Shown here: positions 6,100-10,947 of the stretch, piece after piece
How positions within the stretch are numbered: the stretch's first letter is position 1
Layout of the letters: every line of letters begins with the position of its first letter
Source of the DNA: a virus
Taxonomy: Duplodnaviria; Heunggongvirae; Uroviricota; Caudoviricetes
Virus record (IMG/VR): IMGVR_UViG_2667527666_000002
Span: 1 to 17,684 of that record
Length of the DNA: 17,684 nt
Direction: 5' to 3' (one strand)
The notes under the pieces: generated by a model
Database searches by the model: none
What the model saw: the letters and a program-made list of their open reading frames with translations, nothing else
Told to the model about the DNA's origin: nothing
Position numbers and translations under genes: made by a program

Positions 6100-6792
6100 T
6101 TAATTGTGTCGCTTAAGGGTTTGTGACTGGCTGATTAAGACCTTTCCAAAGACCATAAACCGGTGTTCATTTTCGCTGGTAATTCCCCATTCACGGTAAA
6201 TCTGGTTATCAGAAATCACCAGTAGTTTGTCAGGTATCATTTGCAGTCGTTTGACATAAATTTTATCATCAAAACCAAATACATAGATACCATCTCCATC
6301 AAACTGATTGATACTGACATCAACGAAGATGAGATCTCCTGGCTCAATGGTTGGACACATACTGTCCCCACGAACGTTGATAACTTTAATGTGATTGGCT
6401 GGCCGTCCGCCAAACATCGATACAGCATTATCAGTTCTGTATTCAATGGCATGAATCACATCAATGACATCACCGCCCTGGATAAGGCCATTTCCCGCAC
6501 TGGCACTGACATCCAGCATTTCAATACGGAATACATCCTTCACCTGCGCAACATCCTCACTAATACTGTTTTTACATACAGTATTACTTTTGACGTCTGA
6601 GGTAAAGAGATCAGCAATATCAACACCTAAGCTCCTGGCAATATTACTCAGGGCTTGTTCAGTGAATTGTTTCTGCTTACCTGTTTCCAGGCGTGAGATA
6701 TTCGCCGCATCCACTCCTATTGCTTCAGCGAGATCGGCGATTTTCATGTTCTTCGCCTGGCGAAGTTGTCTGACTCGGTTTCCTATGTTCAT
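6100..6792 (-). CDS. cI: CI-like prophage repressor (N-terminal XRE-type HTH, C-terminal S24/LexA-type self-cleaving peptidase), 230 aa
   Basis: N-terminal HTH (IADLAEAIGVDAANISRLETG); Ala-Gly cleavage-site candidate (SASAGNG); catalytic Ser in GDSM and Lys in YVKRL; divergent from a Cro-like gene. Confidence 0.9.
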   Translation of the reverse strand: MNIGNRVRQLRQAKNMKIADLAEAIGVDAANISRLETGKQKQFTEQALSNIARSLGVDIADLFTSDVKSNTVCKNSISEDVAQVKDVFRIEMLDVSASAGNGLIQGGDVIDVIHAIEYRTDNAVSMFGGRPANHIKVINVRGDSMCPTIEPGDLIFVDVSINQFDGDGIYVFGFDDKIYVKRLQMIPDKLLVISDNQIYREWGITSENEHRFMVFGKVLISQSQTLKRHN

Positions 6793-8055: not shown

Positions 8056-8386
8056 ATTAACCGGCTATGTATGGGATGGTTGCGCTGCGTCAGGCATGAA
8101 ATTATCCAGCGTGGCAATTATGGCCCGCCTGGCTGATTTCAGTAATGACGAAGGTGTGTGCTGGCCATCAATTGAAACTATTGCCCGTCAGATTGGCGCG
8201 GGGATGAGTACCGTCAGAACGGCTATCGCACGGCTGGAAGCAGAAGGCTGGTTAACGCGTAAGGCGCGTCGCCAGGGTAACCGCAATGCGTCGAATGTTT
8301 ATCAGCTTAACGTTGCGAAGCTTCAGGCAGCGGCATTTTCTCAACTGTCAGATTCTGACCCGTCAAAATCTGACGCATCAAAATGA
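8045..8386 (+). pseudogene. Replication-initiator (O-like / winged-HTH N-terminal domain) gene, 3'-truncated by the IS629 insertion
   Basis: N-terminal HTH-type domain ([13 protein letters not shown]...SIETIARQIGAGMSTVRTAIARLEAEGWL); the ORF ends on the TGA formed by the first three bases of the IS inverted repeat (8384-8386); no C-terminal domain. Confidence 0.6.
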
Positions 8387-8425
8387 ACCGCCCCGGGTTT
8401 CCTGGAGAGTGTTTTATCTGTGAAC

Positions 8426-9316
8426 TCAGGCTGCCAGATCATCGTTTCCGATGGAAGCATAATAAGCTTTTTCTGCTTCTGCCGGAGGAGTATGGCCCAG
8501 CCTTTCCAGCAATCGTCGATTGTTATACCAGTCCACCCACGTGAGTGTGGCCAGTTCCACTTCTGCACGGTTTTTCCAGCTCTTACGGTGTATTACCTCC
8601 GCTTTGTAAAGACCATTGATGCTCTCCGCCATCGCGTTGTCATACGAGTCGCCTGTACTTCCTGTTGATGCCAGTAATCCGGCTTCCTTAAGCCGCTGTG
8701 TGTAGGCCAGCGATACATACTGAGAACCTTTATCACTGTGATGGACCGTGCCGGACGGTCGACGGGCCCATAACGCCTGCTCCAGTGCATCCAGCACGAA
8801 TGTCGTTTCCATGGACGATGAGACCCGCCACCCCACGATGTATCCGGCAAACACATCAATGATGAACGCCACATAGACGAAGCCCCGCCATGTGCTGACG
8901 TAAGTAAAATCAGCCACCCACAGCTGGTCAGGTCGTTCTGCCACGAACTGACGGTTTACGCGGTCGCCTGCGGCAACGGCTTTCCGGCTGATGGTCGTAC
9001 GGACCTTTTTACCCCGGAGAACACCGGCAAGTCCCATAACCGCCATGAGACGTGCCACAGTGCATCTGGCCACTCTGATACCTTCCCGTAACAACTGACG
9101 CCAGACTTTACGCACACCGTATACCTTGTGATTTTCATCGTATACGCGCTGTATCTCTTTCTTCAGCCAGTCATCGCGCTGCGCACGGGCACTGCGTTTA
9201 TCCGGATGATGTCGCTGTTGCTGACAGTGGTAATACGTTGACGGGGCAATATGCAGTTCGCTGCATAGCGGTCCGACCCCGTACTGCTCACGCAGCTTAT
9301 CCAGCAGTGGCATCAT
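8426..9316 (-). CDS. IS629-like transposase OrfB (DDE/integrase catalytic domain), 296 aa
   Basis: Translation [29 protein letters not shown]... with a DDE-type core (WVADFTYV ... HSDKGSQY ... [10 protein letters not shown]). Confidence 0.9.
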
Positions 9317-9639
9317 TTTTTCCAGAGGCGGTCGAACTCCGCCTTCGCAAAATAAGCGGAAGCCTGGCGAAGGATATCGTTACTGCGGCGCAGTTCACGA
9401 TTTTCACGTTCCAGCTCTTTCAGACGCTGACGTTCAGCGGTGGTGAGCCCTCCATCACCGCCCCCGGTATCCCGCTCATGCTGGCGAACCCAGACACGCA
9501 GAGTCTCCGGCGTACAGCCAATCTTTGGAGCAATGGAACAAATTGTCGCCCATTGTGAGTCATATTCGCTCTGACTTTCCAGAACCATACGGACTGCCCG
9601 TTGACGGACTTCGGGGGAAAAACGAGTATTTTTAGTCAT
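9313..9639 (-). CDS. IS629-like transposase OrfA (HTH), 108 aa
   Basis: Translation [42 protein letters not shown]...; identical to the orfA of the second copy at 17358-17684. Confidence 0.9.
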
Positions 9640-9693
9640 CCTGTTTACCTCTTTCTCAGGAAGTTTAGTCTCCAGGATTCCCGGGGCGGTTCA

Positions 9694-10238
9694 ATTAACA
9701 CCCTGTTTGGCCCGTTTGTTCTGGATCTGTTCACTGACGGTGATAACGCCAAATGTGCTGCGTATTACACGGCGGAAGACAACGCGCTGGCGCATGACTG
9801 GTCAGAACGCCTTGCGGAGCTTAAAGGTGCTGCCTTTGGTAATCCCCCATACAGCCGCGCCAGTCAGCATGAGGGGCAATACATCACCGGCATGCGTTAC
9901 ATCATGAAGCATGCCAGTGCCATGCGTGATAAAGGCGGGCGCTATGTTTTCCTGATCAAAGCTGCCACCAGCAAGTGTGGTGGCCGGAAGATGCAGATCA
10001 TATTGCTTTTATTCGCGGGCGTATTGGTTTTGAACTGCCTGCCTGGTTTATCCCGAAGGATGAGAAGCAGGTGCCGACAGGCGCTTTCTTCGCTGGTGCT
10101 ATTGCTGTTTTCGACAAGACCTGGAAGGGACCGGCAATCAGCTACATCGGGCGCGATGAACTTGAGGCATGTGGTGAGGCCTTTCTGGCGCAGGTTCGCC
10201 AGCAGGCAGAAAAACTGGTCAGGGAGATGGCGGCATGA
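9694..10238 (+). pseudogene. Phage Dam-type DNA N6-adenine methyltransferase remnant: 5'-truncated at the IS boundary and frameshifted near 9960-9980
   Basis: Frame 1 immediately after the IS reads INTLFGPFVLD...FGNPPYS (NPPY catalytic motif); the C-terminal part (VWWPEDADHIAFIRGRIGF...) continues in another frame (ORF 9975-10238), whose stop overlaps the next gene's ATG. Confidence 0.6.
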
Positions 10239-10561
10239 CGACGTTAACTCAATGCCAGCAGCAGGTGCTGGATATGCTGATTTCTTATCAGAAAGAACGT
10301 GGCTTCCCGCCAACCAATCAGGAGGTGGCAACCATGCTGGGATACCGTTCAGTGAATGCAGCGGTGGAGCATCTTCGCGCACTGGAGAAAAAAGGCGTCA
10401 TCACGATAAAGCGTGGCGTGGCCCGGGGCATCACGCTTCATACCGCGGTGAAGGACGACGACAGCGAGGCGGTCGGGATTATCCGCTCACTGCTTGCCGG
10501 TGAGGAAAACGCAAGGCTGCGTGCAGCCCACTGGTTACATGAGAGGGGCCTGAAAGTATGA
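10235..10561 (+). CDS. LexA N-terminal DNA-binding-domain-like protein, 108 aa, without peptidase domain
   Basis: MTTLTQCQQQVLDMLISYQKERGFPPTNQEVATMLGYRSVNAAVEHLRALEKKGVI resembles the LexA winged-HTH domain; no S24 domain follows; start/stop coupled to neighbours. Confidence 0.6.
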   Translation: MTTLTQCQQQVLDMLISYQKERGFPPTNQEVATMLGYRSVNAAVEHLRALEKKGVITIKRGVARGITLHTAVKDDDSEAVGIIRSLLAGEENARLRAAHWLHERGLKV

Positions 10562-10947
10562 AGCTGATCCTGCCTTTTCCGCCCAGCGTGAACACGTACT
10601 GGCGACACCCCAACAAAGGGGCGTTTGCTGGTAAGAGCCTGATAAGCGCGGCGGGGCGAAAATTCCAGAGCGCGGCGTGCGCAGCAATAGTTGAGCAGTT
10701 ACGTCGTCTGCCGAAACCAACGTCGGCACCTGCTTCAGTGGAGATCGTGTTGTTTCCTCCGGATAACAGGATCCGCGATCTGGACAACTATAACAAGGCG
10801 CTGTTTGACGCCCTGACCCACGCGGGGGTGTGGGAAGACGACAGTCAGGTGAAAAGAATGCTGGTGGAGTGGGGACCGGTTATCCCGGAAGGGAAGGTCG
10901 AGATCACTATCAGTAAGTACGAGAAAACGGCGGGTGCAGCTGCCTGA
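10558..10947 (+). CDS. rusA: RusA-family Holliday-junction resolvase, 129 aa
   Basis: Conserved RusA features: LPFPPSVNTYWRH near the N-terminus and RDLDNYNKALFDALT acidic catalytic region. Confidence 0.85.
   Translation: MKLILPFPPSVNTYWRHPNKGAFAGKSLISAAGRKFQSAACAAIVEQLRRLPKPTSAPASVEIVLFPPDNRIRDLDNYNKALFDALTHAGVWEDDSQVKRMLVEWGPVIPEGKVEITISKYEKTAGAAA

Follow-up and report, generated by a model that had tools for sequence, protein, structure and literature searches.

A LexA-type winged-helix protein without the S24 autoprotease domain, encoded between dam and rusA in the nin region of an SfV-like prophage

[quoted passage not shown] This gene, called lexL here, is under selection, lies in a conserved gene order and is widely distributed. 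We tentatively propose, with a probability of about 0.4, that its product is a RecA-uncleavable, delayed-early, sequence-specific DNA-binding regulator that would act at CTGT-type sites, with a C-terminal hairpin replacing the dimerization function of the C-terminal domain of LexA. lexL belongs to a catalogued, widespread family (SfV orf42, PHROG 362) that is annotated by homology only, and our literature search found no functional study of this lambdoid family. A phage-encoded truncated LexA homolog is a kind of protein already known from gp6 of phage GIL01, and the protein itself would not surprise a specialist.

The lexL gene, its prophage and its relatives

The window begins with proA and tRNA-Thr(CGU), followed by a prophage arm with int, cI, cro, a CP76-type cII and a replication gene, and then by an IS3 element, the Dam remnant, lexL, rusA and the genes for a KilA-N protein, a DUF968 protein and Q. 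The features that concern lexL and the state of the prophage are these (window coordinates):

1369-1444, tRNA-Thr(CGU) gene (thrW) beside proA; prophage integration site, an SfV/SfII-type attachment site
6100..6792, minus strand, S24-type cI gene
8385..9692, minus strand, IS3-family element with its junctions, from comparison with the intact relative L001
9694..10238, plus strand, phage Dam methyltransferase remnant (PF05869), without residues 1-36 and with a frameshift near 9948-9978
10222..10226, plus strand, lexL ribosome-binding site GGGAG, 8 nt before the ATG, read from the sequence
10235..10561, plus strand, lexL (SfV orf42 family, PHROG 362), from its open reading frame, PF01726 and PHROG 362 matches and dN/dS
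10558..10947, plus strand, rusA Holliday-junction resolvase gene (PF05866)

The lexL reading frame is intact, with 108 codons from ATG to TGA. ATGA junctions are present at both of its ends, where its start overlaps the stop of the dam remnant and its stop overlaps the start of rusA, and lexL is translationally coupled to the decayed Dam methylase gene and to rusA. The plus strand around lexL was scanned and no promoter-like or terminator-like site was found. These overlaps on both sides and the lack of a plus-strand promoter or terminator place lexL as an internal gene of the delayed-early rightward (nin) operon, in agreement with a sequence-only reading of this DNA that had assigned it to the nin region. 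Since it has no promoter of its own and lies inside this operon, its product should appear after derepression and not in a lysogen; expression on infection or after derepression is thus the predicted pattern. The suggestion in the same reading that the protein gives the prophage control over its own induction is unlikely as it was worded, because the gene is a promoterless member of a delayed-early operon.

Comparison with L001 shows that perC is gone from the window, together with the 3′ two-thirds of the replication gene and codons 1-36 of dam; the IS3 element stands in their place, and in this copy it separates lexL from the early promoter pR. The int gene (1462-2551) is frameshifted into two frames, split near 1703-1782. 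With the replication gene, dam and int all broken, this SfV-like prophage is defective; lexL, rusA and the KilA-N, DUF968 and Q genes are intact.

The pairing of lexL with rusA is very stable. Of 71 related IMG/VR loci (L005-L075), about 70 have rusA downstream of lexL at a distance of no more than about 1.1 kb, 51 of them with the two genes directly adjacent, and 59 have a DNA methyltransferase gene directly upstream of lexL. Four architectures are represented among these upstream methyltransferases (PF05869 Dam, PF02086 D12 Dam, a PF00145+PF02086 C5+D12 fusion, and PF01555 N6/N4), and in other phages lexL follows perC or the replication gene with no methyltransferase. The simplest reading is that the region upstream of the lexL-rusA pair is a cassette-exchange hot spot in which methylases are swapped; a functional tie of lexL to methylation is a conceivable alternative.

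The exact LexL protein occurs on at least 1000 contigs, where it is named "LexA family transcriptional regulator," and of 5426 complete E. coli genomes, 1629 (about 30%) contain the dam-lexL-rusA block at ≥80% query coverage. A tblastn search found lexL in 61 phage records, including SfV (orf42), SfII, SfIV, mEp460, cdtI, and Stx2a and Stx2c phages; a survey of Stx phages lists the family as pham 237 (PMC8136144). Purifying selection acts on the gene, as 55 of the 56 distinct full-length lexL alleles are intact and the median pairwise dN/dS is 0.14. When 1.84 billion representative proteins were searched with a profile, the matches included full-length relatives with 39-49% identity that have the winged helix and the hairpin pattern, and the length of lexL relatives remains constant (104-112 amino acids) down to 39% identity. 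Short LexA-domain proteins are also frequent in many phage groups in BFVD. The representative-protein search contained, in addition, proteins of 140-350 amino acids (P0128, P0129, P0137-P0139 and others) that carry two tandem LexA_DNA_bind stretches, an arrangement that would allow a single chain to read a two-half-site operator without a dimerization domain.

Domains and recognition helix of the LexL protein

Three parts of the 108 amino acid LexL protein are referred to below:

10235..10438, plus strand, LexA-type winged helix-turn-helix, residues 1-68 (helices 6-22, 28-35 and 40-52; strands 56-58 and 66-68)
10349..10390, plus strand, recognition helix, residues 39-52, SVNAAVEHLRALEK (LexA: SPNAAEEHLKALAR), from alignments
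10457..10543, plus strand, two-helix hairpin, residues 75-103 (helices 75-88 and 93-103), pLDDT about 90 in the second model

Residues 1-65 cover the complete Pfam domain PF01726, LexA_DNA_bind (positions 1-65 of 65; E = 2.9e-19; 69 bits, cutoff 23.7). A Pfam search for a peptidase S24 domain gave no PF00717 match, and the protein ends at residue 108; the C-terminal S24 peptidase/dimerization domain of canonical LexA, with its Ser119-Lys156 dyad, is absent. Consistent with this, LexL matches only positions 1-91 of the 203 in the NCBIfam lexA equivalog TIGR00498 (70.8 bits, below the cutoff of 110.95), whereas its match to PHROG 362 spans positions 1-106 of 106 (E = 1.4e-59). It is 43% identical to residues 1-86 of E. 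coli LexA (BLASTP), and every significant PDB sequence match is to LexA; PADLOC gave only a weak wHTH-type match. BLASTP also aligns an LLAGE sequence in LexL weakly with the LexA cleavage-site motif VAAGE (Ala84-Gly85, in the hinge), but the Ala-Gly pair is not kept across lexL relatives, and LexL has no catalytic domain with which to use it.

Two AlphaFold2 models, one built with 11 close homologs (pLDDT 75) and one with 15 diverse homologs (pLDDT 88, pTM 0.60), have the same layout of winged helix, linker and two-helix hairpin, in which residues ∼69-74 form a low-confidence, flexible linker. The sequence-only reading had described the protein as a LexA winged helix-turn-helix without an S24 domain, and the PF01726 match, the missing PF00717 match and these winged-helix models bear this out. 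Its corollary, that RecA-stimulated self-cleavage cannot inactivate the protein, holds as well, because the S24 domain is missing. On the other hand, its idea that LexL titrates LexA dimers finds no support, since LexA dimerizes through its C-terminal domain (PMC3091678), which LexL lacks.

The family-specific hairpin has no Pfam match and no PDB match, and its pattern is kept in relatives at 39-49% identity. We infer that the hairpin is an oligomerization or partner-binding module, and it probably replaces the dimerization role of the missing domain.

Five residues of helix 3 of E. coli LexA contact the operator, namely Ser39, Asn41, Ala42, Glu44 and Glu45 (PMC3091678). LexL (SVNAAVEHLRAL, compared with SPNAAEEHLKAL in LexA) keeps four of the five, Ser39, Asn41, Ala42 and Glu45, and has Val in place of Glu44; the helix segment reads SVNAAVEHL in LexL and SPNAAEEHL in LexA. 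(The E. coli LexA sequence used in these alignments agrees with the aligned PDB chains.) The LexL recognition helix is of the gammaproteobacterial LexA type and not of the Firmicute type, and for this reason CTGT-like half-sites should be favored. The helix of this allele probably still reads CTGT-type sites, and it is plausible that LexL could, as the sequence-only reading suggested, occupy SOS boxes or similar CTGT sites in a way that RecA cannot relieve.

The best conserved residues of LexL are those of the DNA-binding surface. Glu44 is kept in no family member, and Glu45 is present in seven of 12 diverse members. A 65% identical Citrobacter homolog, encoded by an otherwise syntenic prophage, has NTIAGH where LexL has NAAVEH, which amounts to four consecutive changes at positions 42-45. 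A family whose members all recognized the host SOS box, which is invariant, would not be expected to vary in this way. Between the window and this Citrobacter prophage the identities are 65% for lexL, 91% for RusA, 87% for DUF968, 78% for KilA-N and 84% for cII; within the conserved nin block no gene has diverged more than lexL, and the same ordering is found against two more distant sets. This pattern suggests that the specificity of LexL, or its partner interface, may have diversified.

Candidate target sites

The window contains a single exact match to CTGT-N8-ACAG:

6564..6583, no strand assigned, candidate SOS box TACTGTTTTTACATACAGTA, within the inter-domain linker codons of cI

Its arms extend to 9 nt (TAATACTGT-N8-ACAGTATTA), and Stx2a_1447 and several IMG/VR prophages have here a 20-mer that matches the umuDC operator of E. 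coli at every position (reference read from MG1655). Across four cI variants with ∼72% protein identity, 17 of the 20 columns of the box are identical, and the linker sequences that flank it are almost fully diverged; 17 of 685 sliding windows in cI match the conservation of the box. In one variant the spacer alters the encoded residues, and CTGT and ACAG are kept. An island of conservation with intact CTGT and ACAG in an otherwise diverged linker is very likely a functional DNA element. The cI sense strand at the box reads TTTACC-17 nt-TACTGT, the same layout as in PumuDC, and the box could mark LexA control of cI transcription or of an internal promoter. A literature search found no paper that describes this box. 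This side finding may matter more than lexL itself, and it supplies a concrete first site to test.

Among loci of adequate length, the cI box and lexL occur together in 14 of 15 and in 60 of 63. This was rejected as evidence that links them, because the whole cro-to-Q region is inherited together and the co-occurrence is therefore uninformative; 53 of 56 loci with a P0122-type lexL are without a cI-type box. Covariation of helix and box was uninformative as well, in that P0122-type lexL, with a different helix, is found with the same canonical box, and the Citrobacter P0088-type phage has an unrelated cI and no box.

Most of the related loci lack a CTGT-N8-ACAG box within 10 kb of lexL. All palindromes with 6 nt arms and spacers of 0-12 nt were enumerated in the 71 IMG/VR loci, both in the full sequence and with coding regions masked, and no conserved noncoding operator was found; apart from hairpins resembling terminators, the enumeration yielded only one hairpin, GGTTGC-N3-GCAACC, about 1.7 kb upstream of lexL. 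More fully, a hairpin CTTGTCnGGTTGC-NNN-GCAACCyGAC with a variable 3 nt loop lies ∼1.3-3.5 kb upstream of lexL (L005-L074; for example at position 4808 of L021). The two distant lexL sets have it in 14 of 15 and in 45 of 56 loci, and neither the window nor any of the E. coli phages examined contains it.

A further SOS-like box, TACTGTAAA(A/T)(A/T)TAAACAGT(G/A), lies over codons 3-9 of a late-region N6/N4 DNA methylase gene downstream of Q, at the following places:

L001 15963-15982, L002 (SfV) 34170 and L003 (mEp460) 41021, late-methylase SOS-like box
L006, L010, L012-L014 and L016, +3.5 to +5.6 kb from lexL, late-methylase SOS-like box

Its spacer varies between lineages and CTGT and ACAG are kept. 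It was rejected as a LexL target, being moderately conserved and degenerate in Stx2a_1447, and the methylase gene is absent from the window.

Proposed function, alternatives and comparison with known systems

According to the reading proposed here, lexL would derive from a LexA winged helix that lost its S24 autoprotease and gained the conserved C-terminal helical hairpin. The early rightward operon would transcribe it with dam and rusA after loss of repressor or on infection, as the operon structure implies; the LexL helix would then bind DNA and favor CTGT-type, SOS-box-like half-sites, as the four retained contact residues suggest, and the hairpin would supply the self-association or partner contact that normally comes from the LexA C-terminal domain. 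RecA* should be unable to remove LexL, which could therefore repress or otherwise regulate SOS-type operators, host or phage, while host LexA is being destroyed. There is a precedent in LexA-like repressors, whose DNA-binding fragments go on repressing unless ClpX removes them (PMC10584840). In favor of this model, the cognate phage lineage has strong SOS boxes, including the conserved umuDC-type operator in cI; against it, the recognition helix varies among relatives, lexL diverges faster than the other nin genes, most relatives lack a nearby SOS box, isolated LexA DNA-binding domains bind weakly, and in this copy the IS3 element cuts lexL off from pR and the prophage is defective. A narrower and improbable form would pair LexL, as a stand-in for LexA that RecA cannot inactivate, with the umuDC-type SOS operator in the cI linker. 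Host LexA would sit on the cI box in the lysogen, and after induction LexL would reoccupy that box and host SOS promoters, blocking cI re-expression or an internal cI promoter and shutting down SOS functions or LexA-controlled rival prophages. If true, this would be a second, SOS-wired commitment layer in the lambdoid switch, present in some Stx2 phages.

The main rival explanation, somewhat less likely, is that LexL is a LexA-derived, phage-specific transcription factor that activates or represses at an operator of its own phage and leaves the SOS regulon untouched. There is a precedent in GIL01 gp6, a truncated LexA homolog whose binding site is GaCACAnnTGTGaC and which activates the late promoter P3 (PMC6182141). 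The diversification of the recognition helix among relatives, with Glu44 lost in all of them, fits such a role, as do the faster evolution of lexL than of its neighbor genes and the lack of a nearby SOS box in most relatives. However, no conserved noncoding palindrome emerged from the 71 related loci, the window allele retains four of the five LexA contact residues, and late transcription in such phages is already served by the Q antiterminator.

The gene order itself invites another explanation, that LexL is a DNA-binding accessory in a methyltransferase-lexL-rusA module, for example in targeting or timing methylation or junction resolution, and does not act in transcription. The genes are translationally coupled, a methyltransferase precedes lexL in 59 of 71 loci with all four architectures represented, and rusA follows it in about 70. 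We nevertheless regard this as improbable: four unrelated methyltransferase families point to a cassette-swapping hot spot and not to a protein partnership, some phages have lexL behind perC or the replication gene without any methyltransferase, and no precedent is known. Very improbable is a protein decoy that would bind host LexA, RecA* or ClpXP and alter SOS signaling without specific DNA binding, a reading that takes in the suggested titration of LexA dimers. The conserved hairpin without an assigned function and the weak alignment of LLAGE to the cleavage motif would suit a decoy, but the LexA dimer interface is in the domain that LexL lacks, Ala-Gly is not conserved across the family, the hairpin has no PDB similarity, and the DNA-binding surface is the best conserved part of the protein. 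Decay of the host prophage, with its broken int, replication and dam genes, might suggest that lexL is a functionless relic of a captured lexA gene; this is hardly credible for a gene with 55 of 56 alleles intact and a dN/dS of 0.14, which contradict it, whose length is steady at 104-112 amino acids across relatives to 39% identity, and which is present in the active phages SfV, SfII, mEp460 and the Stx2 phages.

Among known systems, the closest are SfV orf42, PHROG 362 and pham 237, of which the window gene is a member (95-100% identity, likewise between dam and rusA). The N-terminal domain of E. coli LexA (PDB 1LEA/1LEB, 3JSO) exists on its own as a post-cleavage fragment, whereas lexL is a dedicated gene and not a source of cleavage product; LexL also has Val for Glu44, and where LexA continues into the hinge and the S24 domain it has a conserved helical hairpin of 30 residues. 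The two proteins end differently, LexL in GLKV and the LexA fragment in VAA, an end that marks the fragment for ClpXP. The CI-NTD of S. aureus phage phi11 and LexA-NTD are RecA-resistant DNA-binding domains that hold operators closed during SOS (PMC10584840), and LexL may be alike in this respect; those two are fragments of host or phage repressors, however, and LexL is the product of a separate delayed-early phage gene.

Gp6 of the Bacillus thuringiensis tectivirus GIL01, the nearest analog that has been characterized, resembles LexL as a temperate-phage gene product with a LexA-type DNA-binding domain and no protease. Both are expressed early (LexL as judged from its operon) and both are regulators in an SOS-wired phage, in the case of LexL by prediction. 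Gp6 has 66 amino acids and no C-terminal hairpin, in contrast to the 108 amino acids and hairpin of LexL. A BLASTP comparison of gp6 with LexL gave no alignment at E ≤ 100, and LexL is 43% identical to E. coli LexA; thus, they are independent truncations of a Firmicute and a gammaproteobacterial LexA, respectively. The gp6 helix is far more altered from B. subtilis LexA (the Firmicute reference) than the LexL helix is from LexA. Gp6 recognizes its own palindrome, a non-LexA site, and its activation of P3 is experimentally established (PMC6182141). LexA control is rewired by phage proteins such as gp6 and gp7 of GIL01, which change the timing of prophage induction and which co-resident prophage wins. 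The lexL family is found in roughly one in three complete E. coli genomes, and also in Stx2a and Stx2c phages, whose induction sets toxin output. In pathogenic E. coli, a RecA-uncleavable LexA-type binder produced in the lytic phase could alter how the SOS response, mutagenesis or competition among prophages plays out.
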